From Myxococcota bacterium (GTDB taxonomy: Bacteria > Myxococcota_A > Polyangia > Nannocystales > Nannocystaceae), in NCBI GenBank assembly GCA_039028615.1, contig JBCCHT010000039.1:47040-111039 (forward strand): a stretch of DNA of 64,000 nt. Reading direction: 5' to 3'. The notes beneath the pieces were generated by a model. It did not search any database. It saw only the letters and a program-made list of their open reading frames with translations, and was not told where the DNA came from. Below, piece by piece: positions 1 through 47,890 of this stretch (position 1 is its first letter; every line of letters begins with the position of its first letter). The translations under genes and the position numbers were made by a program.

Positions 1-639
1 GTCGACGGCGTCCCGGTCGAACACACCATCTTGAGCACCCGCGGGGTCTGGAAGCTGCCCGGTCTGGGTCGCGGCGAGCACGACGTCGAGCTCGGACCCC
101 TGCCTCCTGGTGTGCGCGTGTACCTCGACCGACCGGGGCTCGATCCACGCCGCGGCAGCACCGACGTCTTCCGCGTGATCACCCTGTATCGGCTCGAGGA
201 CGACCCCATGGGCCTGAAGGTCGACAAGACGGGCGACGACGGCGAGTACATCAACGCGCTGATGATCCGCTGCGACGATCGAGAGCCGAGCCAGCTGAGC
301 GTGCTGCTCGACAACGGCTCGCCGCGACGGCGCCGCGGCGTGCCCATCCAGCGGGTCACCCGAGCCGTGCGCGAGCGGGAGCTGCCCGCCCGCGGCCCGT
401 CGACCGAGCTGGTGTTCTTCGACCGCCCGCAAGCGCGCTGCGAGGCGCTGGGGCGGGTGCCCATTCCGCTCGGCGCCGACCTGGCCCTCGGCCCTCATCG
501 CGTCACGCTGCGCATGAAGGACGGCCCCGGGGTCTGGGTTCGGTTCTTCCGACGGGGGGTCGACGACTCACAGGACCTGCGCGCATTCGAGTGGACCGAA
601 CGACTACTCGACCTCGGCGACACCGCGGGGGCACCATGA
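1..639 (+). CDS. Hypothetical protein, 5'-truncated by the window edge; first visible gene of the pgsB-like operon
   Basis: Frame is open from base 1 (VDGVPVEHTILSTRG...) to TGA at 637-639, has GC-rich third positions, and its stop overlaps the next ATG (ATGA 636-639). Confidence 0.75.
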   Translation, partial: VDGVPVEHTILSTRGVWKLPGLGRGEHDVELGPLPPGVRVYLDRPGLDPRRGSTDVFRVITLYRLEDDPMGLKVDKTGDDGEYINALMIRCDDREPSQLSVLLDNGSPRRRRGVPIQRVTRAVRERELPARGPSTELVFFDRPQARCEALGRVPIPLGADLALGPHRVTLRMKDGPGVWVRFFRRGVDDSQDLRAFEWTERLLDLGDTAGAP

Positions 640-1658
640 ACGAGATGCCGCGCGCGCGAAACCTGCTGTGGGTCACCACCACGGCGAGCTGCTTGCTCGC
701 GGGGGGTCCCGACGAGGCTTCGCAGCGCCAGCGCGGCTCCTCGCACGCCACCGATCCCGGCGAGCGCCTGGGTCCCGAGCGAGACATGAGCGCGCGACAG
801 GCCCGGGCCGCGCTGTGGCCCAACCTGCGAGGCCAGGGCTACGAGGCCGCGTCGACCGAGCACGTCGAGGCCACCCAGCAGCTGCTCGCCGCGACCATGA
901 CCTACGCCACCGGGAGCACCGACGGCCAGGCGCTGCCCCAGCTCGCGCTCGCGGCCGGGCTGCTGCTGCAGCGCTGGAAGATCGACGAGCACCACTACCT
1001 GGCGATCCTCGAGGGCCCCGACGGCTCCGGTCGCACGGGGGCCTTCCTGCTGCGCCTGGGCCCCCCGCCCGCCGATGGGCGAGAACGACTGCTGCAAGCG
1101 CCCCACGCCTTCTTCGACATGGGTACGGGCCGGGTGACGCTCGACGTGCTGCTCGCTCGCCCCGCCGACTTCCGGGGGCTAGCCACCAACACGCTGCAGC
1201 GCTACGTGCAGCCCGACGGCACCAAGAAAAAGTCCGCCCGCAACCCGGCCGACGTCTGCCACAACCACCGGCATCCCTTCGTGGCCGCCACCGTGGGCAT
1301 GGCCGAGGCGAGTGATGCCCTCGAGGTCATTCAGCTGCACGGGTTCGGGGACGACCGCACCATCCCCGAGCTGCCCGAGGCCTGGGCCATCGTCAGCGCG
1401 GGCTCGCTCGACCCCGGCTGGCCGCGCGTCACCGCGGTCGCCACCGCGCTCGAGCGAGACTTCGGCGTCACCATTGCCCGCTACCCCGAGGACGTCGAGC
1501 TGCTCGGGGGCACCACCAACGTCATCGGACAGCGCGTGCGCTCCATCCCGGACGCGACCTTCCTGCACCTCGAGCTGTCCTCGAACTTCCGCACCAAGCT
1601 CCGCCAAAAGCCCGAGTGGTCACGACGGTTCGCCGCCGCGCTGGTCTCTGCTCCGTGA
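636..1658 (+). CDS. Exported Zn-dependent peptidase/amidohydrolase, gamma-PGA-hydrolase/N-formylglutamate-amidohydrolase-like
   Basis: Hydrophobic N-terminus; motifs QAPHAFFD, QLHGF and FLHLELS parallel the APH..E / HG / QxE motifs of PghP-type hydrolases; ATGA and TGATG overlaps with both neighbours. Confidence 0.65.
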   Translation: MNEMPRARNLLWVTTTASCLLAGGPDEASQRQRGSSHATDPGERLGPERDMSARQARAALWPNLRGQGYEAASTEHVEATQQLLAATMTYATGSTDGQALPQLALAAGLLLQRWKIDEHHYLAILEGPDGSGRTGAFLLRLGPPPADGRERLLQAPHAFFDMGTGRVTLDVLLARPADFRGLATNTLQRYVQPDGTKKKSARNPADVCHNHRHPFVAATVGMAEASDALEVIQLHGFGDDRTIPELPEAWAIVSAGSLDPGWPRVTAVATALERDFGVTIARYPEDVELLGGTTNVIGQRVRSIPDATFLHLELSSNFRTKLRQKPEWSRRFAAALVSAP

Positions 1659-4600
1659 TGGCCCGGTGGCTGCTGACCCTGCTGCTGTTGTCCATGGTGG
1701 GGCTGTGCTCGCGCCCCGCCGCCGCCGTTCCCCCTCCCCTGGCCACCGATCGGGCGGAGTGGACCTGGAGCCCCACACCCGTGCACTACGGGGTCGATCC
1801 CGCCGACGTACGAGCGAGCGCGCCCTTCGTGCCCCGAGGAACACCCCGCGTCGAGGGCAAGGTCGTCATCGAGCCCGGTCGCGCGGTGGTGGTGTGGATG
1901 AGCGCCCTGTCCACGGTTCGCGTGCGAAAGACCCGGCCGGAGTCGAGGGGCACGCTGAGCTTCTCGCGGGTCGAGCCCAGCGCGGGCCTGGCCACGGCGC
2001 GGGTCGATGAAGACGGGATCGCGGTCGCCCCCGGGACGTGGCTGCTTCGGCACCCGGTCGGCTGGGGCGCGCCGTGGCTCGTGCAGAGCGATCGACGAGT
2101 GGAGATCGTGGTGGAGCAGGCCGTCGCTCGTCGGGGGCAGCGGATCTGGGAGCACGTGCACGACAACGTCTTGCAGTGGGTGCAGCTGCGCGGCTCCATG
2201 CCCCACCTGCCTTCGACGGCGGGCTCCGAGCGCTATGTCCGACGGCGCCTGGCCGATCGCGAGGTCGCGCGGGAGATCCAGGACCTGTCGGGGGGCAACG
2301 CCGAGGTGCGCCAGGCCCTGATCGCATGGCGCATGATTCGAGCCGCCGATGAACTCGACCTGCTGCGCCCCCTGGGCCAGGTCGAGGAGATCGTGCCCAA
2401 GGCCGCGCCGACGGTGGAGCTGCCCCACCTCCGCGACGACCCCACCTCCGCCTCGGCCGACCTGCACTTCGTTCGCGTGGAGCCGGAGCAGCCGTGGCAC
2501 TTCGGGGTGCGTGGTCCGGGGGTGCTGCGGCTGGGCCTGCGAGCGTTGCTGCCCCCCGATGGCCCGCGCTCGCGACCGCTGTCCGCGGTGGTGAAGACCC
2601 GAGGCGACGACGGTCGCGAGCACGTGGTGAGGCGCCTGGACGTGCTCGCATCGGTCGCGCGAGTCCGTGACGTCGGCGATCCACAGGCGCCCATCCCCAC
2701 GCTGGTCGACGCCCGCACCGAAGCCGGAGAGCTCGCGTCGCTGGAGCACACGCTGACGGTGCCCCTGCGGCCGGGCAAGCACGAATACTGGGTGGAAATC
2801 GCGGGCAGCCCGGTGGCCCTGCGCGCCCGGCTGGGCCGCGTGGTTCCGCAGGCGCACGGTCGAGACTCGACACAATGGCGGGCCCGCACCCGTCGTCGCG
2901 CCCTCGCCCGACTCGACGATCAGCGCACGGTGGCCGCCCACGTGACGCGCCTTTTGTTGGCCGATCCCTGGGTCGCGCCGTGGCGCCTGCCGCTGCCCCT
3001 GCGCAAGACCCTGGGCCGCGATGCGCCGCGCGTCCGCGTGTTCATGGAGCTTCACTCGCTGCGGCGGCGAGACATCGATGCCGTCAGCCGCATGGCGCGA
3101 GGTCGCCAGGTGAATGCATGGCTGCCCTTGGCCCCCGAGGCCGACGCCCTCGACATCGAGCTGCGCATGCAGATGTTCGAGCTGCGCATGGCCGCCGGGC
3201 GACACCTGCGAGCGGTGGAGATGCTGCGCAGCCACGCGGGGGCCCTCAACGGCGACGAGCTGCCCGCCCTGGTCGACGCGGTGCAGGAGCCCGGACGCGC
3301 GTGGCCGCTGATGGGTGCGCTCGATGCCGTGGCCGCCCGCGCCCCGCTGGCCAGCCGACTGCGGGCCGCCCATGCGCGCCTGTGGTCGTGGACGAGCTGG
3401 GCGCGGCTGCACCCCACCACCGACGTTCCCGCGTGGCGCTGGGTCGAGCCACCGACCGCCCGCTCGCCGACCGCCGACTCGCCGCCCGGGGCCCTGTGGT
3501 CCATGCCCCTGCGGACCGCGGTGAAGCTCGTCGCCCCCGCGCACCCCTTCGAGCGCGATCGGACCCCCGTGCTGCGGATCTCCGTGCACGCCGACGCCCC
3601 CGTGAAAGGTCCGCTGAAGCTTCAGGTCGGCGACGACGTATTCACCACGCCCATGCTCGGCCTCTCGGAGGTGTTCGAGGTCGCGGTGCCCGTGGGGACT
3701 CACTTGGTCTGGCTCGATGCCCCCGAAGGCGTGCACGCGCTGAGCAACTTGCACCCTGCCCCCGGACAGACGCACGCCAAAGGGCCGAGCCCGCTGCGGA
3801 CCACGATGTGGCCGGCCCACCGCGACGGTCGGGCGACCCAGTTCGACCTCGGTGCGCTGCCCCGCGACACGCTGGTCCAGGTGGGACTGCGGGTCATCGA
3901 TCCTCCCTCGTCGCCGGCCGAGCCCGTCACCGCGTGGGTCTGCTTCGACGACGGCCAGCGGCGTCGGGTCGTCGTCGCGCCCGGGTCTCGCCCCACCGAG
4001 CTCATCACCATGCCGGGCGCGCCGACCGTGTCCGATCGCGTGCACGTGGTGGTACCGGCCTCGCGTCGCGCGACGCGGGTGTGGGTCGAATCCGAGACGC
4101 CGCTGGCGGTGGCGGCCAAGGTGCGGCGCTGGGATCCGCCACCCGCCCAGGCCTTCGCAGAGACCACCACCGTGGCCACCCGAGGCCCGGGCGCTCGACT
4201 CACGCCGCAAACACGCCACGCCGCCACGAACCGACGCCGCGTCCGACGAGGTGAGCCCTACGAGCGACTGCGGCAATCGACGCGGCGCATCGCAGCCCAG
4301 CCCAAGTCCATTCGCGCCCGGGTGGAGCATGCCCATCGCCTGCTCGACGTCGGCGATCGCCAGCGCGCCCAGTGGGAGCTGCTCGACGTGCTCGAGGCCA
4401 ACCCGCTGCGCCCCGACGATCCACGCGTGCCCCTGGTGCAGGCCCTTCAGGCGCGCATCGATGCGTTCTTGACCGACGACTACATTCGCCAGCCGAACAC
4501 CCCGTATCCGCAGCCGTTGCTGCTACGGCCGGCCATGGCTGCGCTGGGACCCGACCACCCCTCGCGCTCGCAGGTCGCCGAGGCCACCGCCGCCGCGCAC

Positions 4601-6718
4601 GAGGGACGGCTGCGCGAGGCGTTCGAGGGTCACGCCGACGCCTATGCGCACAGCGAGGCCCTGGGCCCGGGCTATGCCGCCGCGCTCGCCTACGCCGATG
4701 CACTGTGGGGAACGCCGGGTCAGCCCCTCGATCCCTCGTGGGTCCCCCTGCGCTCGCTGGCCTACGGCGTCACCAGCCGAGTGCGCGCACAGATCGACAC
4801 GCCGCGCCTCCGTCGGCTGCACAACGAGCTGGCCACCCCCGGTCAGTGGCAGCCCCTCCAGCTCGCCGAGCGAAGCGCGGGCACCCAGGATCGAGGGCGT
4901 CGCGCCAACACCCGAGCGCTCACCGACACCGAGCGGCTGTGGTGGGCCCTGCTCGCTCCGCCCTGGGCCGAAGGCGAGGGGCAGCTGCTGCGCTCGGGGG
5001 CGCGGAGCATCATCAAGCTCGAGCTGCCCGACCCCCACGCGATCGAGCTGGAGGTGTTCTGCGACGATCGCCGCAGCGATGCGGACGAGCTGTCGGTCGA
5101 GCTGCGCACTGAAGACTCGACCACGCCCATGCAGGACGACACGCTGGTGCTGCCTCGCCGCCGCGCACGACGACATCGGCTCCCGGCTCGTCGCGGCTCG
5201 GTGCGCATCGAGTTGCGGCTCCCGCCGGGCGCTCCCGAGCGACGCTGTGCGGTGCGCTGGCAGCTGGTGCGCTCGGCCACCGAGGCCCTCGTCTCCGAGC
5301 GACCCCTGCGGTGGCTGCGAGCCGAGCCGGGGCGACCGGTGGAGATGATCGTGCTGGGCCCCACCGCCTTGCGCCTGAACCTCGAGCCGCGCCGTGAAGA
5401 CACGTCCACCACCGCCACCGTGCAGATCGCCGACCTGGCGGGCAAGGACCCGCAATTCGTGTCGCTCCCCGTCGAGGCGGTCGGCGACGGCGGCTCGGAC
5501 CCCGTCACTCTGCTCATACCGCAGGCGGGGGCGCAGCGGCTGACGATCAACACCGACGACGAAGGCGTGCTCGCCCGGGTGGCCGTGCGTCGCTCGAGCG
5601 ACGGCAGCGACGAGGCCGTCGCCGAGCAGATCGCCGCCCTCGCTCCCACCACCCACGGCTCGGACACCGCCGCCGTTTCGGCCGCCCTCGACCTCGACCC
5701 ACCGGGTCCCTACTGGCCCTCGGGCGCCGATGCACGCCCCACCGAGCGCATCGCCGACGCTCCCTCCGACGCCACCGGGCGGCTCGGCTCCTTCGAGGCC
5801 GAGCTCGGCTTCAGCCGCACCGACATCGCCGAGGCCGACGACCCCCGCCCCCGCAGTCGATTGCGCGGCAGCGTGCTGTGGCGGCGCGAGCTGTACCCCG
5901 ATCACATCTGGCTCAAGCTGGCCACCCACGGTCAGGGGCGCGACGGGGCCGGGGGCGCGGGAGGAGCGGCCGCCACCGCCTACGCCCAGCTCGGCTCGCG
6001 GCGCCTGCGGGGATGGGCCTCGGTCGCCTCGTGGGCGGAGCGCTACGGCGACATCCCGGCGTCGAGCGTCCGCGCCACGCTGCATCTCGATCGACCGCTG
6101 GGCATCACCCCGTCGCTCGCCGTCATCCCCTACTTCCGCAGCTCGTATCGCCACCAATCCCTCGACGACGCCCAGTTCGACATCGACATCGACCCCTCGC
6201 ACGCCCAGGTGTTCTCGGCCTACGTCGAAGACCACCCGCTGGTGCTCACCCCCGGGGCGCGGCTGCGCTGGAATCCGTATCGCGACCTGCAGGTCTCGGG
6301 TGAGGTCAGCGCCACGCCCAACTCCGTGCCCGACTCGCTCGACCACGTCGACGGCGCGGTGAACCTCCAGGGCATCATCGACACCCGGCTGCCCCTGCTG
6401 GTGCGCTACGGCGGCGCCTACCGGGCCTCGCTGCGCTTCGAGGACGACGACCGCGTCCAGACCTTCGTTCGCCACAGCCCCAGCCTCAATGCGGGCGTGA
6501 CCTGGATCTTCCGCTCTGTCGGTCGCCTGAACCTCGATCTCCGCGATACCGTCTACCTGTCGCGCCCCTTTGCCCCCCGCAATGGTGTGCACGTGGTGCT
6601 GTCCTTCGAGCTGACCTTGGACCGAGGCGTCCGCGATACCTCCCCCATGGAGCTGCTGTTCCGCCCCGCCTACCGCTACCGATGGTGGCAAGCCCCGCCG
6701 CGGAGGTCGGCGCGGTGA
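1658..6718 (+). CDS. Large secreted protein (~1686 aa): signal peptide, beta-rich domains, TPR-like patch, probable C-terminal outer-membrane beta-barrel
   Basis: Signal peptide MARWLLTLLLLSMVGLCSRPAAA; helical repeat-like segment ~4260-4450; alternating amphipathic strands rich in aromatic and Gly residues ~5780-6640; coupled to both neighbours. Confidence 0.7.
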   Translation: MARWLLTLLLLSMVGLCSRPAAAVPPPLATDRAEWTWSPTPVHYGVDPADVRASAPFVPRGTPRVEGKVVIEPGRAVVVWMSALSTVRVRKTRPESRGTLSFSRVEPSAGLATARVDEDGIAVAPGTWLLRHPVGWGAPWLVQSDRRVEIVVEQAVARRGQRIWEHVHDNVLQWVQLRGSMPHLPSTAGSERYVRRRLADREVAREIQDLSGGNAEVRQALIAWRMIRAADELDLLRPLGQVEEIVPKAAPTVELPHLRDDPTSASADLHFVRVEPEQPWHFGVRGPGVLRLGLRALLPPDGPRSRPLSAVVKTRGDDGREHVVRRLDVLASVARVRDVGDPQAPIPTLVDARTEAGELASLEHTLTVPLRPGKHEYWVEIAGSPVALRARLGRVVPQAHGRDSTQWRARTRRRALARLDDQRTVAAHVTRLLLADPWVAPWRLPLPLRKTLGRDAPRVRVFMELHSLRRRDIDAVSRMARGRQVNAWLPLAPEADALDIELRMQMFELRMAAGRHLRAVEMLRSHAGALNGDELPALVDAVQEPGRAWPLMGALDAVAARAPLASRLRAAHARLWSWTSWARLHPTTDVPAWRWVEPPTARSPTADSPPGALWSMPLRTAVKLVAPAHPFERDRTPVLRISVHADAPVKGPLKLQVGDDVFTTPMLGLSEVFEVAVPVGTHLVWLDAPEGVHALSNLHPAPGQTHAKGPSPLRTTMWPAHRDGRATQFDLGALPRDTLVQVGLRVIDPPSSPAEPVTAWVCFDDGQRRRVVVAPGSRPTELITMPGAPTVSDRVHVVVPASRRATRVWVESETPLAVAAKVRRWDPPPAQAFAETTTVATRGPGARLTPQTRHAATNRRRVRRGEPYERLRQSTRRIAAQPKSIRARVEHAHRLLDVGDRQRAQWELLDVLEANPLRPDDPRVPLVQALQARIDAFLTDDYIRQPNTPYPQPLLLRPAMAALGPDHPSRSQVAEATAAAHEGRLREAFEGHADAYAHSEALGPGYAAALAYADALWGTPGQPLDPSWVPLRSLAYGVTSRVRAQIDTPRLRRLHNELATPGQWQPLQLAERSAGTQDRGRRANTRALTDTERLWWALLAPPWAEGEGQLLRSGARSIIKLELPDPHAIELEVFCDDRRSDADELSVELRTEDSTTPMQDDTLVLPRRRARRHRLPARRGSVRIELRLPPGAPERRCAVRWQLVRSATEALVSERPLRWLRAEPGRPVEMIVLGPTALRLNLEPRREDTSTTATVQIADLAGKDPQFVSLPVEAVGDGGSDPVTLLIPQAGAQRLTINTDDEGVLARVAVRRSSDGSDEAVAEQIAALAPTTHGSDTAAVSAALDLDPPGPYWPSGADARPTERIADAPSDATGRLGSFEAELGFSRTDIAEADDPRPRSRLRGSVLWRRELYPDHIWLKLATHGQGRDGAGGAGGAAATAYAQLGSRRLRGWASVASWAERYGDIPASSVRATLHLDRPLGITPSLAVIPYFRSSYRHQSLDDAQFDIDIDPSHAQVFSAYVEDHPLVLTPGARLRWNPYRDLQVSGEVSATPNSVPDSLDHVDGAVNLQGIIDTRLPLLVRYGGAYRASLRFEDDDRVQTFVRHSPSLNAGVTWIFRSVGRLNLDLRDTVYLSRPFAPRNGVHVVLSFELTLDRGVRDTSPMELLFRPAYRYRWWQAPPRRSAR

Positions 6719-9700
6719 AGATCGGCCCGCTGAAGCTCGGCGTGCCCTCGCTGGCGCGGGTGCGGCACCACGACGATCCGAGCTCGCCCGCCTACGTGGG
6801 ACGAGACAGCCATCGCCGCGCGGTCATCGACCTCATCGCGCGCCACATGTCTCCGCTGCAGGCCAAGGTGCGGCGTCGGGTGCTGGACGAGCTGTCGCGG
6901 CGCATCGTCGACCGCGAGGGCGAGATCGATCTGTTCTTCCAGCTCGACGAATCGGAGCGCCTGGCCGCGACCCTGCTGCACGCCCGCCATGTGATCCCCG
7001 TGCTCGAGGCCGAAGAGGAGCGCTTCGTGGTCGAGTTTCGCCGGCTGGTGCGAGCCCACGACGCCCTCGATTCCCAGGCCGAGCAGCGGCGCTTCTTGGC
7101 CGATCACCTGCAACGTACCGCGTCGAGCCGCGGGCAGGCCCGGGCCGACCGTGCCGCCCTGCGTCGCAACCTCAACCTCGAGGCGCTCAAGGAACGGCAC
7201 GATGGCGATCGGCATCGGGTGTTGGTGCAGGTCGAGGTCTCGCTCGACTTCATGGCCGGGGCCCTGGTCACGCTGGGCCCCGACGCGCCCGCCCCGACTG
7301 AATCCAAGGCCTCGGCGCTGGCGCTGTTGGGTGACTCCGACGTGCTCGAGTTCCTGGTGACCTACGCCCGGACCCAAGCGCGCTGGCAGACCCGCTGGGC
7401 CGCCGCCCGAGCGCTGGAGGCCTACGTCTGCACGGGCATCACGCTCACGGACGCGCAGATCGAGGGCCTGCGCGGGCGCATCGCCGACAAGAACGAGCAC
7501 CCGTGGGTGGTCTCGGTGTTGGTGAGCACGCTGTGGACGACCCGGCCGCAGCTCGCTCGTACGATCACCGAGGAGCGCCTACGCACGCCTCTGGAGCACC
7601 CGCTGGACTTTCTGGTACGGCGGCTGCTGCTCGACCAGACCCATCGCGACGGGCCCTGGGCGCTGGGCGTCATCGAGGCCCTGCTGCACCGAGGAGACCC
7701 CGCCCAGCACGTACGCCTGGGCATCAACCGGGTACTGCGGCGTCTGCTCGACGAGCACCCCGAGGCGCTCGATCTCATCGTCTCGCAAGTCGGCATCTTG
7801 CCCGCGAGCGCGCCCGAGCCCGAGCCCGCCCCGCGGCGCAAGAGGAAGAAGGCCAAAGCCGAGCCCGCGCCCGCGCCGAAGCTCGAGCTGCCGTCGGAGA
7901 CCGTCAGCACCGAGGACGTCGCATCCTCCAACGACGCCAATTACGACTCCGCCGATCGCAAGAAGAAGCAACGCCGCAAGCGACGGCGAAAGAAGAAGGA
8001 CAACAAAGAAAAGAAGAAACGGAAGAAGACGGAGAAGCCCGCTCCGCCACAACAGCCCGCGCAGGACGAGCCGACCGAGGCCGTCGAGGAGCCCGCGAAG
8101 GACGAGCCGACGCCGGCCGAGCCCGAGGCACCGACCGAAGACTCCGGGCCCAGCGAGCATGCCGTCGTGCCCGACGTGGGCGATGCCGCGGCACGGGTTC
8201 GAGCCGTGGCGGGGCGAGCATTGGTCGTCACCCTGGGCGAGCGCCTCGCCTGCCCCGAAGCGGGCCCGCGGGGCAAACAGAGCCTCGCGTACCTCCACAC
8301 CTGGCTACGGCGTGAGCGCGACGAGCTACCCCTGCTGGTCACCTTCGAGGCCCTCCGTCGCGTGCTCGAAGACATCCACGAGGACCACGACGGTCGCGAG
8401 GCGCTACGGATCCTCGCCCCCGTGCTCGCCGAGCTGTCCCGTGACGGCGCTGCGTCGCCCGCCATCCACGAAGACGCTGCCGCCACCCTCGAGACCCTCG
8501 ATCGCGTGCTCAGCCCACCGCGCCGGGCCCTGGTCGCCCGGCTGCGCTCCGCCTTGTCGCAGACCTCGGTGCCCGGCTCGTGCCGCGTGCCCCTGACCGA
8601 GGACAACGAGCGCGCCGACGTGGGCCGAGCCCTGGCCGAGATCACCCGCGATGACTGGGGCGTCTCTGCGTCGCTGTCACCTCGCCGGGCACGCCTGCGC
8701 CGTGGCGACCGCTTCACCACCAAGCTGTGGCGAGTGCTGCACGAGATCCGCAACCCCGCGCCCAACAAGCGCCAGGGCTTTCGCCACACCGTCGGCCGCG
8801 TGCTCACGGGCGACCTGCGAGCCCACAGCGGACAGCTGCACGAGGTCACCCCCACCGTGGTCCCCGGCGAGCGCGTGCACATCCGGGGCGAGGGCGGCTG
8901 GGGTCGACACGTGCCCTCGGCCGACGACGTGACCACCGTGCCCCTGCTTCGGCCGCGCCCGGTGGAGCTTTACAGCAGCTTCGGCGTCACTCGACTGCGC
9001 GCCACCGGATCGCTCGCCAAGCGCCTGTGGTCGCGCGCGCGGCTGACCTTCCGCTACGCCGAGGTGGCCGCCCAGCGCAGCACCAGCCTCGACTCCGACG
9101 AGCCCGAGGAGTCGCGCCGCTACCTGACGATGCTGCGCGATCGCTACGGCATCGAGGTGGAGATCGAGCCCGCGCCCCCCTGCGGCGAGCACCCGCGGGC
9201 CCTGCCCGAGCGCATCACCGCCCTGCTGCCCGGCGAACCGGAGCCCCCCGCCGACGCGTCGTCCAAGCCGTCGACGAAGGTCGCCGCGCTCGCGCTGGCC
9301 CCCGACGCGCTCACCCCCGGCGTGCTGCCCCGCCTCGACGAGTGGCTCGACACCCACGTCCACTACTTCCTGTCGATGCAGGCCAACCAACAGGCCTCGC
9401 TCGCCGCGTTCTTCCTCGGGGCCTTCGCGCTGTTCTTCGGCGACTCGTTCCGCCGCCGCCACTCCATCGATCGCGCCCGCAAGAAGATCCCCCTGTGCAT
9501 CGGCGGCTGGGGCACCCGCGGCAAGTCGGGCACCGAGCGGATCAAGGCGGGCCTGTTCCACGGCCTCGGCTACCAGGTCTTCTCCAAGACGACCGGCTGC
9601 GAGGCGATGATGATCCACTCCGTACCCGAGGGCCCTCCCGCCGAGGTCTTCGTGTTCCGCCCCTACGGCAAGGCCACCATCTGGGAGCAGCGCAACCTGC

Positions 9701-11604
9701 TGGAGCTCGGCGCCGCCCTCGAGGCCGACGTGTTCCTGTGGGAGTGCATGGCGCTCAACCCCAAGTATGTCGAGATCATCCAGCACAAGTGGATGCGCGA
9801 CGACCTGTCCACGCTGACCAACGCCTATCCCGATCACGAGGACATCCAGGGCCCGGCCGGCATGGACGTGGCCAACACCATCTCGCGCTTCATCCCCGAT
9901 GACGGGATCATCCTGACCAGCGAGATCAACTTCCTGCCCCTGTTCCGCGAGGTCTGCCGCGAGCGAGACAGCGAGCTGGTGGCCATCGGGCCTCACGAGG
10001 GCGACCTCATCGCACCCGAGCTGCTCGACCTGTTCCCCTACCAGGAGCACCCCCGCAACATCGCGCTGGTGGCTCAGATGGCGGAGCAGCTCGACGTCGA
10101 CCACGACCTGGCCATCGTCACCATGGCCCAGCACGTGGTCGCCGACCTCGGCGTGCTCAAGAGCTATCCGCCCGTGCGGGTCTGCGGGCGCGTGCTCAAG
10201 TTCATCAACGGCTGCTCCGCCAACGAGCGCGCCGGGTTCTTGGGCAACTGGGAGCGCACGGGCTGCGCTGCGCTGGCCGAGAGCGAAGACCCCGAGCAGC
10301 TGGTGATCACCGTGGTCAACAACCGGGACGACCGCATCAGCCGCAGCGAGGTCTTCGGTCGCATCCTGGTCAACGACTGCGTGGTCGATCGTCACGTGCT
10401 CATCGGCACCAACCTACGCGGGCTGCTCTCGTACCTGCGCGGGAGCATGGCGATCTTCCTGCAAAACATTCAGCTCGTGCGTGCGGCCGACCTCGAGGAC
10501 CCCGAGGGACGGGAGCGGGCGCTCGGGCGCCTGGCGGCGTTGATGCAGCGGCTGCGGATCTCTCCGCTGTCTGCCAATGCCCTGCTCGCCCGCCTCCGCA
10601 CCTATGCAGCCGGTTGCGGCCTCGAGCTGCGCGACCCCGAGCCCGCCCGCAAGGTCCTCGAGCAAGCCCTGGCCAGCGACGGCGGCCTCGAGCTGGCCAA
10701 GCTCCGCAAGGACTTCGAGCAAGACGCCAAGCTCCGCGCCGCCCTCGATGCCGGCCTGAGCGAGCCCACCGAGGCCTCCACCCAGACGCCGCCAGAGGTC
10801 CTGATCCCCTGCGAACGCAAGGAACTCGAGGTGCACTTCGCCCGCCAGCTCGCGCGCGCGGTGATCCATGCTCGCCTGCGACGACAGCTCGAGGCCCTGT
10901 TCGACAACAAGTCGACGTCCGAGCTGGGGGCCTACGAGGATCGGGTCCGCGAGACCTATCGGGTGATGTTCGATGACATGTTGGTGGTCGTCGAAGATCC
11001 CAAGACCAAAGGTGACGCAATCGTGCAAGCGTGTGCACGGTGTGTACCGCCCGGGACCCATGTACGCATCATGGGTACCCAGAACATCAAGGGTACCGGT
11101 CTCGACTTCGTGTATCGATGGTTGGCCGTCGATGCCGTGGTGGCGGAGCTGAAGATCCTGCAAGGGCCGGAAGACGACGGGCGACTCGGGGCGCTCGAAC
11201 GACTGCAGGCCTTTGCCGATCACGGGGTGATGGATCTCGGCCTCCTCCATCGATACCTGCGCGAGAACGAGCCTCGGGGGGCCGCCGAGCGAGCGCCCTT
11301 CGATCGCCTCAAATCCAAGGTAGAGCCCGCCTACAAGAAGAAACGGGCTCCTTTCGAAGCGGCGACGGGCCCCGATGCACCGGGCGGCAAGAAGAAGAAG
11401 ACGTGGGTCGAGTCGGCCGCGAGCTGGATCGAGGGATGGCTCGATTTCCTCGACGGTGCCCGTCGGTTCCACGGATCGGCCGCGATCATGAAGGACCTGG
11501 TGCACGGCCGTGTCTCCCACCCCCGCGCCGCCGTGCTCATGCGCGAAATCTACGCGAGAGAAAAGGGAGGTTGGTTGCTGGCACGCTTTTCCAACAAGGG
11601 GTGA
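6715..11604 (+). CDS. pgsB: Giant poly-gamma-glutamate synthetase PgsB/CapB-like protein (Mur-ligase fold) with ~900 aa N-terminal extension
   Basis: GTG at 6715 overlaps the upstream stop (GTGA) with GGAGG upstream; P-loop [50 protein letters not shown] and late MGTQNIKG match PgsB/CapB signatures; hydrophobic helix ~9390-9440 precedes the ligase domain. Confidence 0.8.
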
Positions 11605-11680
11605 GTGTAGGACGTCCCAATACGAAATCAGACCATTTCATGATCCTCGAAGGGGCACTTCGACCTTATCGTTGCCCCGT

Positions 11681-13804
11681 ATGACTGGACTCGCGTTGTT
11701 CCTGCCGTCGACCCTTGGTTCAAAGTATGGGCGCTCGATCGTCGGGCCCGGGCTGGCCGCGATGTGCATGCTGCTGGCGAGCGATGCCGCCCAGGCGGCC
11801 GTCGTGCCCGCGCAGATCGTAGTGCGGACCGGCGACACCCCGACCGGACCGATGGTCATCGACGTGCACGGAGCGGTCGTCAACGATGCGGGGGAGCCGG
11901 GGTTCATCGTCGATCTCGCGGATGGCGATCACCTGGTGTGGGTCGGCGCGGGGCCGGTTTGGGAGGGCAGCGACGACGCCGTCAACATCCTCAGCGACGT
12001 CGAAGCCACCATGGGCACCAACGGCCTGGGCGACTTCGTCTACGCGCCCGACATCAATGGCATCGACGGCCTGTATACGAACAGCGGCCCCTTGGCGATC
12101 GCGGGCGACCCTGCGGTGGGGCACCCCGCAGGTGCGATCTACACCTTCCATCGCCGCCCCTCGATGAGCGCCGACGGATCCGTCTACTGGAGCGCGGGCG
12201 TCGACCTCGACGGCGGAGGCACAGACGTCCTCACTTTCTACCGCAGCCCCGACGGCACCCCGGGCTCCATCGAGCGGCTGCTGTCCAGCGGCGACGCGGT
12301 CGGAGCCTTGATCGTCGACGACTCGGGCGGCGGCACCGATGGCGGCATCGACAGCGACTACCAGGTCTCCGAAGACGGCACCCACCGAATCCACGTGCTC
12401 AACATGGAGGGCCCCTCGACCATGGACGGCATCGTGTGGGTCGATGGCGCGGTCGCCATGCAGGAGGGGACCCCCACGGGCGGCGGAGACAACTGGGACA
12501 ACTTCGATCTCGTCTCGATCAACAACGCGGGCAACTACCTCGTCACCGGCAATACCGATGGCCCCGAGGGCACCGACGAGTTCGTCGCCTACAACGGGAC
12601 CGTCGGCATTCGCGAGGGCGACCTGGTGGGCGGGGTGGCCCTGCAGACGAGCGCCAGCCTCCGCTTCGCCTCGATCAACGACAGCAACCAGGCCGCGTTT
12701 TCCTGGGGCTACCAGTCGGTGGCCGGCTTCCGGGAGGCGGTGTTCTTTTCCTGCAACGCGGCCGACCTCGGGGCGTCGTCGCTGCCCGTGCTCACCACCG
12801 ACGACGACACCATCGACATCGACGGCGACATGATCGGCGACTTCGTCGTCGACGAGATCGTCAGCTCTACCGCGGTCACGGCCAAGGTCCTGGGCAACAC
12901 CCCCTTCATCTATGCCGAGGTCGACCTCGACGACGGCGAGGCGGTCTACAACGCCGTCGTGCAGATCCCCGTGATCTGCTGCGGCAACGGCCTGGTCGAT
13001 CCGATGGAGGACTGCGACGACCAGAACGCCGACAACACCGATGGCTGCCTCGACAGCTGCATCGCGGCCAGCTGCGGCGACGGCTTCATCCAAGCGGGGG
13101 TGGAGACCTGCGACGACGGCAACGACGACGATACCGACGACTGCCCCGGCACCTGCCAGCCCGCGACCTGCGGCGACGGCTTCGTGCAGGCCGGCGTGGA
13201 GGAGTGCGACGACGCCAACGCCGACGACACCGATGACTGCATCGCGGGCTGCGTGGCGGCCTCGTGCGGTGACGGGTTCGTGCAGGCCGGCGTCGAAGAC
13301 TGCGACGATCAGAACGACGACGACACCGACGACTGCGTGGCCGGCTGCGTGGCGGCCTCGTGCGGCGACGGGTTCGTGCAAGACGGCGTCGAGGAGTGCG
13401 ATGATGGCAACGACGACGATGACGACGAGTGCCTGAGCGACTGCACCATACCCGTGCCCCCCTCCGACACCGGGTCCGAAGGTGGCGACACCACGGGCGG
13501 TGATACCAGCGAAGACACCACGGCGGGGGAAGGCGAAAGCGGCGTCGACAGTGCGAGCACGGGCGACGGCGGCAGCGCGGAAGGGGTGGACCCCGATGAT
13601 GCGGGCAATGCCACCGACTCGGCCGGAGACGCGACCGGCTCGGGCAGCGACGGCGGCAGCGGCAGCACGGCCGGGGTGGGCGACGACGGGGGCGGCTGTG
13701 GCTGTCGCACCAGCGACGAGCGCCCAGTCTCCGGCATCGTGTGGAGCCTGTTCGGGCTGGGCCTGCTGGGCCTGAGGCGCCGACGTCCCACGCTCGGTCG
13801 CTAA
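11681..13804 (+). CDS. MYXO-CTERM surface protein with myxobacterial Cys-rich (DUF4215-type) repeats
   Basis: Signal-like N-terminus; five CGD/NG...E.CDD.N.D.TD.C repeats ~12980-13440; Ser/Thr/Gly/Asp linker; C-terminal GCGCRT...[15 protein letters not shown]; start codon uncertain (11681 or 11762). Confidence 0.85.
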
Positions 13805-13859
13805 AGCCGGGCTCCGCTTCGAACGGCACCGGTCGACGGTATTGCAGTACTGTCGACCG

Positions 13860-14969
13860 GTGGCGGACGACGATCAACCCGCTCCCTACAGCGCGGACTC
13901 GATCACGGTGCTCGAGGGCCTCGAGGCCGTGCGTCGGCGGCCCGGGATGTTCGTGGGCAGCGTGGACGCCGAGGGGGTGCATCACCTGCTGTGGGAGGTC
14001 GTGGCCAATGCCCTGGATGAGCACCTCGCCGGGCATGCCCAGCGGGTGCAGGTCTGCCTCGACGGCAGCACGGCCACGGTGGAGGACGACGGCCGGGGGA
14101 TCCCCACCGCGCTGCACCCTTCCGGGAAGACGGCGCTCGAGGTCGTGCTGACCACCCTGCAAGCAGGGGCGACCGCGGACGGGCACACCCCCCACGTGCA
14201 CATTGCCCCGTGTCTACACGGCGTGGGGCTGGCCGCCGTCAATGCCCTCTGCGAGCACCTGCACGCCCGGGTGCACCGCCACGGCCGACGCTTCGAGATC
14301 GCCTGCGCCCGGGGGCAGGTCGTCTCGCCCCTGCGGGATCACGGGCCCAGCGACGGCCGGGGGACTCGGATCGAGCTGCGGCCCGACGCCACCCTCTTCA
14401 GCGACACCACCTTCGACCGGGCCCTCGTACGCGAGCACCTGCGCCGGCTCGCGTACTTCAACCCGACGCTGCGCATCGGCCTCGACGACGAATCGTTCCA
14501 CGAGCCCGCCGGTCTCGCCGCCTTCGTCCGCGAGCACGCCTGCGCCCGAGACGAGGCGACCCCCGTCATCCACCTGTGCGAGGTCGCCCGGGACGTGCGG
14601 GTCGAGGTCGCGATCACCTTTGGGGAGCCCGCCGCCCCTCGCACGCACTCCTTCGTCTGCCAGCGACCCACGAAGGAGGGCGGCACCCATGTGGAGGGCC
14701 TGCGGCGCGGCCTCGAGCGAGGCATGCGGGCGTGGTTCCAGGCTCGACCGGCGCTGTCCCCCGTCCGCCTCGATCGCGTGCCCGGCTTCGTGGGCGCGGT
14801 GCACGTCGGCCTCTACGACCCTCGCTTCGGCGGCCCCACCCGGGATCTGCTCGCCGACGGTGAAGCGCGATCGGCCGTGCACGAGGTCGTGGCGCATCGC
14901 CTGCCGCAGTGGCTCGAAGACCACCCCGATCACGCTCGCTGGCTGGCGGCTCGGATCGCGCCTTCGTGA
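13860..14969 (+). CDS. Stand-alone GyrB/ParE-like N-terminal fragment (GHKL plus transducer, no TOPRIM)
   Basis: YSADSITVLEGLEAVRRRPGMFVG, EVVANALDE, VEDDGRGIP, LHGVG and EGGTHVEG; ends after ~369 aa with no C-terminal half. Confidence 0.85.
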   Translation: MADDDQPAPYSADSITVLEGLEAVRRRPGMFVGSVDAEGVHHLLWEVVANALDEHLAGHAQRVQVCLDGSTATVEDDGRGIPTALHPSGKTALEVVLTTLQAGATADGHTPHVHIAPCLHGVGLAAVNALCEHLHARVHRHGRRFEIACARGQVVSPLRDHGPSDGRGTRIELRPDATLFSDTTFDRALVREHLRRLAYFNPTLRIGLDDESFHEPAGLAAFVREHACARDEATPVIHLCEVARDVRVEVAITFGEPAAPRTHSFVCQRPTKEGGTHVEGLRRGLERGMRAWFQARPALSPVRLDRVPGFVGAVHVGLYDPRFGGPTRDLLADGEARSAVHEVVAHRLPQWLEDHPDHARWLAARIAPS

Positions 14970-15650: not shown

Positions 15651-15778
15651 GGTCTGTGGATGCAGCATGCGTCGTTTCCGACCCAGGAGAGCATCATACC
15701 GCACTCCGAGGTGAGCCCGATCGCCGGTCGGCGGGATTTGTGACGCAGGCGCTTGGCGCCGCGGTGGGCCGCGCTACC

Positions 15779-16786
15779 ATGCGCTCCGTGCCCGCGATCG
15801 CCTGGAAACGGTGGTGCGTCACGCTGCTCGGCCTCAGCGTCTCCACCGCGCTCGCTTCACCCGCCATGGCGGGCGAGTCGGACGTCTCCACCGTTGTCCT
15901 ACCGATCTCCACCGAAGGCGAGCTGAGCCAAGTCGCGCTCGACCGGATCGACGCTTCGCTGCGCAAGGGCCTGACCTCGGGCGGACTGTCCATCGTCGAC
16001 GGCGGCGGCACGAGCCCGTGTGCCGATGCGCAATGCGTGGCCGATCGGGCCACACAAGCCGAAGCAAACACCGCCGTGCAGCTCCAGCTCGTGCTCGAAG
16101 GTCGCGACTATCGCATCGAGCTATTGGCCACCGATCGCGATGGCAAGCCGCTCACGGCATCGGCCGAGTGTGCCATCTGTGGCTTCGACGAGGCCGCGAC
16201 CGTCGTCGGAGACGAAGCCACGATCCTGGCCGGAAAGCTCACCGAGGGCCCTGAACCGGCCCAGGTCACCGTCGACACGACCCCCGCAGGCGCAGCCGTC
16301 TATCTCGACGACGAGCCGGTCGGGACGTCACCCTTGTCCATCGACGTCACCGAAGGCGAGCACGAGATCCGCCTCGAGAAAGAGGGCTTCGGTACCAAGC
16401 GCGCCACGTACTCGGCGGTGGGCGGGGTGAAGGAAAAACTCAGCTACGAGATGGTCGCCCAGACGGCCCCGAGCAAGTCGATGCGCACGGGAGGCTGGGC
16501 CGCGGTGGGAGCCGGGGCCGCGGCGTTCATCGCCGGAGTGGGCTCGCTGGCAATCAACGGGCGCGACGTCCCGTGGCGCTGCGACGACCCGGTCAACATC
16601 GACGCCAACGGAATCTGCCGCTACCAGTTCACCTCGGTGCCGGTCGGCGCGACGCTGCTGGCGCTGGGCTCGGCGAGCGTGGCCGCGGGCACGGTGTGGC
16701 TGCTCGTCGATCGCAACCGCCGTCGCGCCGACGCCAAGCAGGTGCGCATCATCCCCACCGGGCTGGGCATCGCGGGTCGGTTCTGA
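15779..16786 (+). CDS. PEGA domain protein
   Basis: Signal peptide; VDTTPAGAAVYLDDEPVGTSP...GEHEIRLEKEG PEGA pattern; hydrophobic C-terminus ending GLGIAGRF. Confidence 0.85.
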   Translation: MRSVPAIAWKRWCVTLLGLSVSTALASPAMAGESDVSTVVLPISTEGELSQVALDRIDASLRKGLTSGGLSIVDGGGTSPCADAQCVADRATQAEANTAVQLQLVLEGRDYRIELLATDRDGKPLTASAECAICGFDEAATVVGDEATILAGKLTEGPEPAQVTVDTTPAGAAVYLDDEPVGTSPLSIDVTEGEHEIRLEKEGFGTKRATYSAVGGVKEKLSYEMVAQTAPSKSMRTGGWAAVGAGAAAFIAGVGSLAINGRDVPWRCDDPVNIDANGICRYQFTSVPVGATLLALGSASVAAGTVWLLVDRNRRRADAKQVRIIPTGLGIAGRF

Positions 16787-44645: not shown

Positions 44646-45283
44646 GGGATCTGATTCGGATTCGACGCGGGGTCGACGTCCCGAGAGATAAGCTCGGGAG
44701 TCTTTGGCGGCCCGCGGTTGCCCGCTTGTTGTGCAGCCGCGATGCCAACGGCCGCGCTGTGCCGCCGAAATTCGGAGCCGTCGACGGTTTCCTCAGTGAT
44801 CTCGAAGGCAAGCCGCGCTGGCGTCCGTTTTTGGCGATGGGTCGCGCGAGACTGGGGAGCCCTGGAGCGCGCGGCCGATCGCTGCGACCTCCGCCGGGAT
44901 TGAGCAGGGTCCGCGCGGCAACTCGGCGAGATTCACCGATTGCGGCAGATCCTTCATGGCCACCGCCGTGATCCCATGGCTTCACCAGTCGCCACGCACG
45001 CCCCCGTGATTTCGACGGCCGCCGTCGTCGTCGAAATCTCCGCGGGGGCTCCGTGCGTATCCAACCTTGAAGCCCCATGCCCCCGAACGAGCCCGCTCCG
45101 GTCCGCGGTCGCCCGGAAGATCGGGGGTCGATGTCCCGGTCTCGGACGCCACCCGTGGCGACCCAGCCCCTGCCCCACGGCCGGAACGCGCCCGAGCAAA
45201 ACGGACAATGGCGGCTGTTACGATGGCTGACGTTGGATGGTCGCGAGACGAGCCCGCCCAGTCAGACCGACGTGGGCGAGACG

Positions 45284-47890
<2,607 letters not shown>

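Follow-up and report, generated by a model that had tools for sequence, protein, structure and literature searches.

The textbook machinery for poly-γ-glutamate synthesis is the PgsBCA system of Bacillus, a host with a single membrane, in which the ligase PgsB is about 400 amino acid residues (aa) long. Short PgsB–PgsC pairs are also found in bacteria with two membranes, as in capBCA of Francisella and in Fusobacterium, and Fusobacterium nucleatum, after work by Candela and colleagues in 2009, is reportedly cited as the first Gram-negative producer of polyglutamate. To our knowledge, how poly-γ-glutamate leaves a bacterium with two membranes is an open question, and the outer-membrane polymer exporters known to us handle sugars. 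Synthase-dependent systems, such as those for cellulose (BcsA/B/Z/C), PNAG (PgaABCD), alginate (Alg8/44/K/E/L) and Pel (PelB–G), combine an inner-membrane synthase, an anchored partner, a hydrolase, a barrel protein and a sensory regulator. Here we describe a cassette of six genes, A–F, that runs into a 64,000-nucleotide stretch (the window) of contig JBCCHT010000039.1 from a marine myxobacterium of the family Nannocystaceae (assembly GCA_039028615.1), and that joins a very large PgsB-type ligase and two PgsC modules to a set of envelope proteins, one of which ends in a predicted outer-membrane β-barrel. We consider it probable that this cassette synthesises a poly-γ-glutamate-type polyamide and exports it across both membranes in a manner resembling synthase-dependent systems.

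The window corresponds to contig positions 47040–111039 of a 12.3-Mb genome assembled in 94 contigs and 96.7% complete. No RNA run is listed for the locus; the single run that contains it is a marine metagenome, which may itself have supplied the DNA. The initial annotation of the window had recognised four co-oriented, overlapping genes, which we call C, D, E and F. They lie where it placed them, and all three stop/start junctions can be read directly from the sequence: ATGA at 636–639 (C/D), TGATG at 1656–1660 (D/E) and GTGA at 6715–6718 (E/F). The genes of the proposed four-gene operon thus stand, whereas its extent does not, because inclusion of 17 kb of upstream sequence brings the number to six and moves the start of the operon to about 7.3 kb upstream of the window. 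In the combined sequence, L003, a window position equals the L003 position minus 17,000. Gene A (L003 9724–11844) encodes 706 aa with CHASE2 and GAF domains (CHASE2 E 4.5e-13; the GAF matches are weaker and fall under the Pfam cut-off). It is followed, after a gap of 16 nucleotides, by gene B (L003 11861–15031; 1,056 aa), whose product contains tandem PgsC/CapC modules and two degenerate hydrolase-like domains. The ATG of gene C (L003 15021, contig position 45060) sits 11 nucleotides inside the end of B, overlapping its stop codon, and the 872-codon frame continues to window position 639, so that the window holds its 3′ 212 codons at 1–639. Gene D occupies 636–1658 (340 aa), gene E 1658–6718 (1,686 aa from its ATG) and gene F 6682–11604, and all six genes are on the forward strand. 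From this arrangement, A–F are predicted to form one translationally coupled operon.

The G+C content is 64–74% across the first 16 kb of the window, and 65 open reading frames of at least 100 aa overlap that region. With long chance frames so common at 72% G+C, the reality of the C, D, E and F frames rests on homologues. The recurrence of such homologues elsewhere with their gene order preserved, together with conservation across phyla, rules out a chance origin of these four frames.

F is the polymerase candidate, with 1,640 aa if translated from ATG 6682 or 1,629 aa from GTG 6715. Its residues 926–1253 match positions 18–330 of the 380 positions of the PgsB profile TIGR04012 with E 2.9e-59 and 200.7 bits, and this is the sole NCBIfam family to match F at E ≤ 0.01. 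These results confirm the earlier identification of a PgsB/CapB-like ligase of about 1,630 aa, and place the enzyme with PgsB and not with FolC, MurC–F or CphA. When the whole genome was searched with TIGR04012, F scored 204.8 bits, against 19.6 bits for the next-best locus. Short PgsB proteins align to positions 4–330 of a profile of F and, weakly, to positions 515–572, and database records name relatives of F ‘poly-gamma-glutamate synthase PgsB/CapB’. No match was found for the ligase region of F in phmmer and profile searches of PDB sequences.

The ligase core (9457–10440, aa 926–1253) contains a 10-residue P-loop (9502–9531, aa 941–950) that is invariant in 18 orthologues, in which more than 60 further columns are also invariant, and a second 10-residue motif at 9826–9855. 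Immediately before the core is a hydrophobic helix (9394–9450, aa 905–923), followed by a basic stretch, at the position of the membrane anchor of an ordinary PgsB. After the core, a C-terminal extension (10441–11604) comprises a variable insertion of about 190 aa, a conserved region and a family-specific tail; the conserved region includes a 10-residue motif at 11080–11109, where the C-terminal piece of short PgsB aligns weakly, and the tail ends in a conserved ..QKGGWL helix (11563–11580).

The N-terminal part of F, upstream of the hydrophobic helix, contains a HEAT-repeat region, recognised by Pfam weakly in the protein from the window (E 0.0056), at E 6.8e-6 in its Marinobacter relative (26.7 bits, cut-off 27.7) and clearly in a split form of the protein (E 8.2e-8). 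Between the HEAT region and the helix is a conserved domain of 260 aa (8599–9378, aa 640–899) with no Pfam match and no usable match in the ESM Atlas; its matches in the PDB were only noise at E > 0.8. Two myxococcal loci are informative here. In L010 (429–2570) and L014 (369–4660), both on the reverse strand, F is divided into a HEAT/mid-domain protein, with which the domain equivalent to aa 640–899 remains, and a PgsB protein of 714–742 aa, the PgsB gene starting just before the hydrophobic helix. Neither a signal peptide nor a membrane helix is present in the detached HEAT protein, and the first 900 aa of F are therefore a separable module, which is probably cytoplasmic. In more distant loci, only the C-terminal 1,000–1,100 aa or so of F were matched. 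A very basic, low-complexity tract rich in Lys and Arg (7834–8037, aa 385–452) also lies in this cytoplasmic-looking region, in an enzyme predicted to make a polyanion. A Pfam match of F to SR-25 is spurious, being produced by that tract.

The initial annotation had supposed that PgsC and PgsA might be encoded upstream of the window. PgsC is indeed there, as a tandem pair within B, which matches CapC/PgsC (PF14102) with E 7.1e-36 and 123.7 bits over the whole protein. The two modules score 75.6 and 69.7 bits against a Pfam cut-off of 27, each covering positions 1–117 or so of 119, and the genome has no other CapC match. The expectation of a PgsA failed, no such gene being linked to the operon. 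The membrane part of B is confined to its first 365 aa. The remainder comprises two domains with homology to D (hhalign 98.3%, E 2.5e-14 and 95.4%, E 1.7e-8) and to each other (97.6%). At the positions of the invariant histidines of D, the B protein of the window has other residues, and its C-terminal domains are probably binders and not enzymes. A PDB sequence search with B returned no match.

The product of gene D carries an N-terminal export signal with a possible lipobox cysteine, Cys19, and is a lipoprotein candidate; its orthologues differ, some having a clear lipobox and others a standard signal peptide. Across 11 orthologues, residues H157, D161, T164, H235, G236, H311 and E313 are invariant, and they fall in or near three invariant motifs, APH..D..TG (1095–1130), LHGF (1329–1349) and FLHLELS (1560–1580). 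An AlphaFold2 model computed from 11 sequences, with a mean predicted local distance difference test score (pLDDT) of 78.4, has a Zn-peptidase fold according to both Foldseek and VIA-align, with an extra N-terminal helical/β region at residues 45–130 or so. The predicted fold and the export signal together support the original description of D as an exported Zn-peptidase-like protein. In VIA-align the closest structures are Atu2144 (2odf, Z 13.3), PghP (3a9l, 12.3), an N-formylglutamate amidohydrolase (2q7s, 12.1), the poly-γ-glutamate hydrolase of phage PM1 (21dc, 11.9) and YndL (5onj, 10.9), and in a BFVD search the second-ranked match is the poly-γ-glutamate hydrolase of Bacillus phage Bobb. 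PghP is described in the passages available from one source as a Zn-dependent endo-hydrolase of poly-γ-glutamate (PMC4497714). The predicted fold of D is nearest to those of PghP/YndL and the N-formylglutamate amidohydrolases (PF05908, PF05013), and its invariant His/Asp/His set (H157, D161 and H235) is a candidate Zn-ligand triad; D differs from these proteins in having 13–18% sequence identity and no Pfam match, the closest approach being one of the 11 orthologues, which matches PF05908 with E 0.0089. Unlike the phage hydrolases, D is predicted to be a secreted or lipid-anchored protein of the host, and unlike the PghP/YndL family at large, the cassette has two further, inactive-looking copies of the fold built into B.

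Protein C has an N-terminal hydrophobic anchor and is rich in β-structure. It matches no Pfam or NCBIfam family, and the ESM Atlas yields unnamed clusters only. In L011 (7487–10987) and L013 (7321–10815), C and D are fused in a protein of about 1,166 aa, which ties the C family to the hydrolase. A module of C also has weak profile similarity to a β-sandwich module of E (hhalign 75.8%, E 2.3e-5).

Protein E begins with a classical signal peptide (1658 to about 1735), which is followed by about 1,350 aa of predicted periplasmic domains without a family match and by a C-terminal region in which we predict an outer-membrane barrel. E matches neither a Pfam nor an NCBIfam family, and none of six orthologues has a Pfam match. 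The family is nevertheless large: a profile of the last 640 aa retrieves 1,150 cluster representatives (50% identity) at E ≤ 0.001, 629 of them at E ≤ 1e-30, and the full-length relatives among the best 150 listed are mostly 1,300–1,900 aa long. Among 28 representatives of the family, the only Pfam matches are one weak MalQ_N and one LysM, the latter in P0262 at aa 1160–1201 (E 1.5e-10), which hints at contact with peptidoglycan. An AlphaFold2 model of residues 1050–1686, built from 40 sequences (pLDDT 83.4), shows a β-sandwich region (4982–5593, model residues 60–263) and then about 14 long antiparallel strands, predicted to form a 14-stranded outer-membrane β-barrel (5771–6625, aa 1372–1656), after which comes a conserved tail motif, RG.RD..P (6620–6646). 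The best matches to the barrel in Foldseek are OmpG structures (TMt 0.57–0.67). Comparison with VIA-align gives Z scores of 20.3 for CymA (255 residues aligned), 18.7 for OmpG, 15.2 for PgaA, 15.0 for BcsC and 14.6 for PelB. The initial annotation had described E as a tetratricopeptide repeat (TPR)/β-barrel-like protein; the barrel is supported by AlphaFold2, Foldseek and VIA-align, and the TPR part has no support from Pfam.

Comparison of the cassette with PgsBCA(E)/CapBCADE of Bacillus reveals a shared centre, namely a PgsB-type ligase behind a hydrophobic helix and PgsC/CapC modules encoded in the same operon. The differences are extensive. F has some 1,630 aa, with HEAT repeats, the 260-aa domain, the 190-aa insertion and the C-terminal tail as additions; PgsC occurs as a tandem duplicate, to which two pseudo-hydrolase domains are joined; Pfam and NCBIfam scans find no PgsA/CapA, PgsE or CapD in the operon; and three envelope proteins, C, D and E, are added in a host with two membranes.

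The layout of the cassette, as read from genes and models, corresponds part for part to that of the synthase-dependent exopolysaccharide systems. F with B would be the counterpart of the inner-membrane synthase BcsA, C that of the anchored periplasmic partner BcsB, D that of the periplasmic hydrolases BcsZ, AlgL and PgaB, and E, a secreted protein ending in a barrel, that of BcsC, PgaA and PelB; A would be the sensor, for which we name no polysaccharide counterpart. The cassette is not a member of this group, however, since its polymerase is a Mur-ligase-type amide ligase and not a glycosyltransferase. The barrel of E, with a predicted 14 strands, is nearer to CymA and OmpG (Z 18.7–20.3) than to the polysaccharide exporters, and Pfam detects no TPR in E, unlike BcsC, PgaA, PelB and AlgK. 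We identified no PilZ domain or other receptor for cyclic di-GMP, and the regulator here is a CHASE2 sensor.

Conservation of the cassette was assessed first within the phylum, with the PgsB domain as query against 301 genomes of Myxococcota, of which 99 have matches. These matches are of two types. The giant type, at 35 places in 34 genomes including that of the window, is matched at E ≤ 1e-97 and 42–100% identity within long open frames; the short type has 29–38% identity and open frames mostly near 400–450 aa. From the 34 giant loci outside the genome of the window we examined 20, chosen for the room available on their contigs and drawn from 15 genera and nine families. In 17 of these, B precedes F on the same strand, and in 15, B, D and F follow one another in that order. 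D is present in 16 and C-like open reading frames in 13, and in 18 of the 20 a frame resembling E, with barrel and tail motif, immediately precedes F, or the HEAT gene where that is separate. Six short-type myxococcal loci, by comparison, have a PgsB of about 400 aa with a single adjacent CapC, and no homologues of C, D or E were found within about 9 kb of the PgsB gene. The giant cassette thus has PgsB and PgsC in a two-membrane host in common with the short cassettes, as in Francisella and Fusobacterium, and is set apart from them by its tandem CapC and by C, D and E. One short-type locus (L028, 8313–10052, forward strand) encodes PgsB and CapC in one frame of 580 aa, with CapC at aa 440–556, a possible PgsB–PgsC fusion.

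The closest named relative is Paraliomyxa miuraensis (Myxococcota), with 70–79% identity. For the long ligase, a scan of one genome per species gave at least 559 relatives, and the best 80 of these include proteins from Nannocystis, Enhygromyxa, Plesiocystis, Haliangium, Corallococcus, Pyxidicoccus, Sorangium and Labilithrix, together with Marinobacter daqiaonensis, Halomonas daqiaonensis, Vreelandella, Halovibrio and the planctomycete Candidatus Uabimicrobium. Our statements about occurrence beyond the phylum are based on isolates only; several records of metagenome-assembled genomes titled Enterobacteriaceae, Rickettsiales or Spirochaetaceae are placed within Myxococcota, and these titles look wrong. 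In Marinobacter daqiaonensis and Halomonas daqiaonensis (63% G+C), a CHASE2 histidine kinase, a receiver, B, C, D, E and F follow one another on one strand with overlapping ends, and in Candidatus Uabimicrobium (33% G+C), a CHASE2 kinase, a receiver and B face E and F. The gene order, whose conservation elsewhere was at issue in the initial annotation, is therefore kept across Myxococcota loci and in Gammaproteobacteria. Judged by gene content and order, the cassette is kept together in three phyla: in Myxococcota, in isolates of Gammaproteobacteria and, in part, in a planctomycete. Vreelandella massiliensis has four CapC matches, in two B genes, and two E matches, on contigs C1 and C2, and apparently contains the cassette twice.

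A FastTree phylogeny of 111 ligase cores, rooted on six short ones, is descriptive; its longest internal branch separates giant from short ligases, the window adjoins Paraliomyxa, and the gammaproteobacterial and planctomycete ligases are nested among myxobacterial lineages. The giant ligase was not found in 120 other genomes from the family of the Halomonas carrier, and its distribution in that family is patchy; one short PgsB was found there. The halophile Chromohalobacter canadensis 28 secretes an exopolymer with a polyglutamate fraction, and the passages available from the source do not name the genes (PMC7401248). We make no link between this organism and the giant ligase, which those 120 genomes did not yield.

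Two features of the cassette guide its interpretation. Three independent components, a PgsB-type ligase, PgsC present twice and a PghP-type fold in both D and B, point to γ-glutamyl chemistry, and the fixed linkage to the secreted barrel protein E points to export. In the mechanism that we propose, F, kept beside B at the membrane through its hydrophobic helix, would add glutamate to a γ-linked chain in an ATP-dependent manner, as PgsB does. The duplicated PgsC module of B would provide passage through the inner membrane, and the two pseudo-hydrolase domains of B, probably periplasmic, would hold the emerging chain. C and the periplasmic part of E would guide the chain through the periplasm, and D, as a putative Zn hydrolase, would trim or release it, a role comparable with that of BcsZ, AlgL or PgaB towards polysaccharides. 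The 14-stranded barrel of E would be the exit pore. Activity may be set by the CHASE2 sensor A and perhaps by the HEAT and aa 640–899 domains of F. Every polymer-handling step in this scheme is one that we infer. Overall, we conclude that the interpretation first placed on the window, a poly-γ-glutamate synthesis and export operon, is supported as far as computation goes; what the polymer is, and that it is exported, are predictions.

Several observations weigh against this reading. F falls under the equivalog cut-off of TIGR04012 (200.7–204.8 versus 222.7 bits), and the 190-aa insertion splits its PgsB module, separating off the last 50 profile positions; with its score below the cut-off and its C-terminal piece displaced, F is a PgsB homologue and not an equivalog by NCBI's rule. 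B likewise scores 53.5 bits against TIGR04011, under the cut-off of 96.45. The topology of the synthase is not straightforward. The basic side of the helix of F follows it, so that a true membrane span would place the 900-aa N-terminal region outside the cell, and that region has no signal peptide. Both flanks of the helix look cytoplasmic, and it may instead be embedded in the membrane, or rest on its surface or on B, without spanning. For B, a positive-inside count over the alignment gave no clear membrane side for the C-terminal domains. PgsA/CapA (PF09587, PGA_cap) is absent from the operon, the single match in the genome being on contig C45, and pgsW (TIGR04332) has no match in the 96.7%-complete genome, a model that also matched none of 14 control genomes. 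As to D, its top structural matches are tied within about one Z unit, and the fold does not by itself identify the substrate. The D protein of the window has no Pfam match, PF05908 giving none at E ≤ 5, and a profile of D found no match among PDB sequences, the invariant His and Asp residues being candidate Zn ligands. D was also not found in four of the 20 giant loci, one of them a 3.8-kb contig end, and is absent as a separate gene from Vreelandella and Candidatus Uabimicrobium, so that the hydrolase is dispensable in some lineages. Two Bradymonadia-like loci, L008 and L009, have a rearranged gene order, and in Sorangium the genes are scattered over about 80 kb, the only D-like match being elsewhere. 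Finally, Pfam detects no TPR in E of the window, in the six orthologues or in the 28 family representatives. The barrels of polysaccharide exporters of the PgaA, BcsC and PelB type have 16–18 strands, and the predicted 14-stranded barrel of E is narrower than these, which match it at lower Z.

Some of these points bear on what is made. The cassette might produce another amino-acid polymer, a mixed or glutamine-type chain, or γ-glutamyl chains on a glycan or lipid, with the rest of the machine exporting that product. The scores of F and B under their NCBIfam cut-offs are in keeping with this, as are the insertion and extra domains of F and its separation by a long branch from the short PgsB of the same phylum, to which it has 29–38% identity. 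There is also a parallel in Halobacteria, whose CapB relatives are proposed, in the passages available from a bioRxiv preprint, to serve a glycosylated polyglutamate wall polymer (10.1101/2022.11.30.518518). The ligase, the doubled PgsC and the PghP-type folds of D and B nevertheless all point towards γ-glutamyl chemistry, and no other ligase family matches F; we regard a different product as unlikely.

Other points bear on where the polymer goes. A PgsB-type polyamide might be kept as a periplasmic or surface-anchored envelope layer, with E as the anchoring platform in place of a free exit pore, and with D processing or attaching the chain, as CapD of Bacillus anthracis does, in place of releasing it. 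Such a layer would suit the very large periplasmic part of E, the LysM domain of P0262, the two binding-type pseudo-hydrolase domains of B and a barrel of the narrow, 14-stranded kind. A secreted barrel protein encoded directly upstream of the synthase is, however, the arrangement of polymer exporters such as BcsC, PgaA and PelB, and Pfam and NCBIfam scans reveal no sortase-, GGT- or CapD-type enzyme in the operon, so that we hold retention in the envelope to be unlikely. Traffic in the opposite direction can also be imagined, with the barrel as an entry channel and D as a depolymerase in the uptake and degradation of foreign polyglutamate; the nearest structural relatives of the barrel, CymA and OmpG, are oligosaccharide uptake channels, and D has a hydrolase fold. 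Against this, the gene conserved best within the cassette specifies an ATP-dependent ligase whose P-loop is intact and which has a PgsC module as its partner, no other component is absent as often as D, and Pfam scans show no transporter or catabolic gene in the operon. We consider uptake very improbable. Synthesis and export of a poly-γ-glutamate-type polyamide thus remains the reading that we prefer.

The surroundings of the operon are varied. Directly 3′ of F, a gene at 11510–13804 (forward strand) encodes a protein that has acidic repeats rich in cysteine (DUF4215, E 4.1e-18; TIGR02232) and carries a sorting signal of the MYXO-CTERM type (E 5.5e-5). It is followed at 13842–14969 (forward strand) by a gene for 375 aa matching the N-terminal half of GyrB only (HATPase_c and DNA_gyraseB; 286 bits, cut-off 740). 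The frames that come after it contain no C-terminal part of GyrB, and its product is predicted to be a truncated or stand-alone GyrB-like ATPase. A PEGA-domain protein (E 4.4e-13) is encoded at 15656–16786 (forward strand). On the other side, about 3–6 kb upstream of the operon (L003 3905–6915, reverse strand), a gene for a DUF1552 protein adjoins one for a DUF1592/DUF1588/DUF1587/DUF1595/DUF1585 protein, a pairing characteristic of genomes of the planctomycete type.

Open-access and bioRxiv texts (subscription journals lay outside the scope) yielded no account of the cassette or of a way for polyglutamate to cross the outer membrane, in agreement with the view of the initial annotation that no such system had been characterised. 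What is new here is PgsBC chemistry set in a much larger architecture with a dedicated envelope module. We give about an even chance to a broader reading, in which the cassette would represent a dedicated trans-envelope machine for polyamide secretion, the counterpart of the cellulose, PNAG, alginate and Pel systems, built around a Mur-ligase-type polymerase and distributed through gene transfer across Myxococcota, marine Gammaproteobacteria and Planctomycetota. The parts peculiar to such a machine would be a tandem-PgsC channel whose pseudo-hydrolase domains act as integral chain holders, the C family, and a family of barrel proteins of about 1,700 aa with more than 1,000 clusters.

The cassette offers candidates for each part of a polyamide route through the envelope, from a synthase at the inner membrane, through periplasmic partners and a hydrolase for trimming, to a barrel for exit, with a sensor in addition. 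It is present in cultured members of Marinobacter, Halomonas, Corallococcus, Nannocystis and Plesiocystis and is thus directly testable. It also provides a first functional context for three large unannotated protein families (1,150 cluster representatives for E alone), and the new PgsB/PgsC architecture may serve polyglutamate production in Gram-negative hosts.

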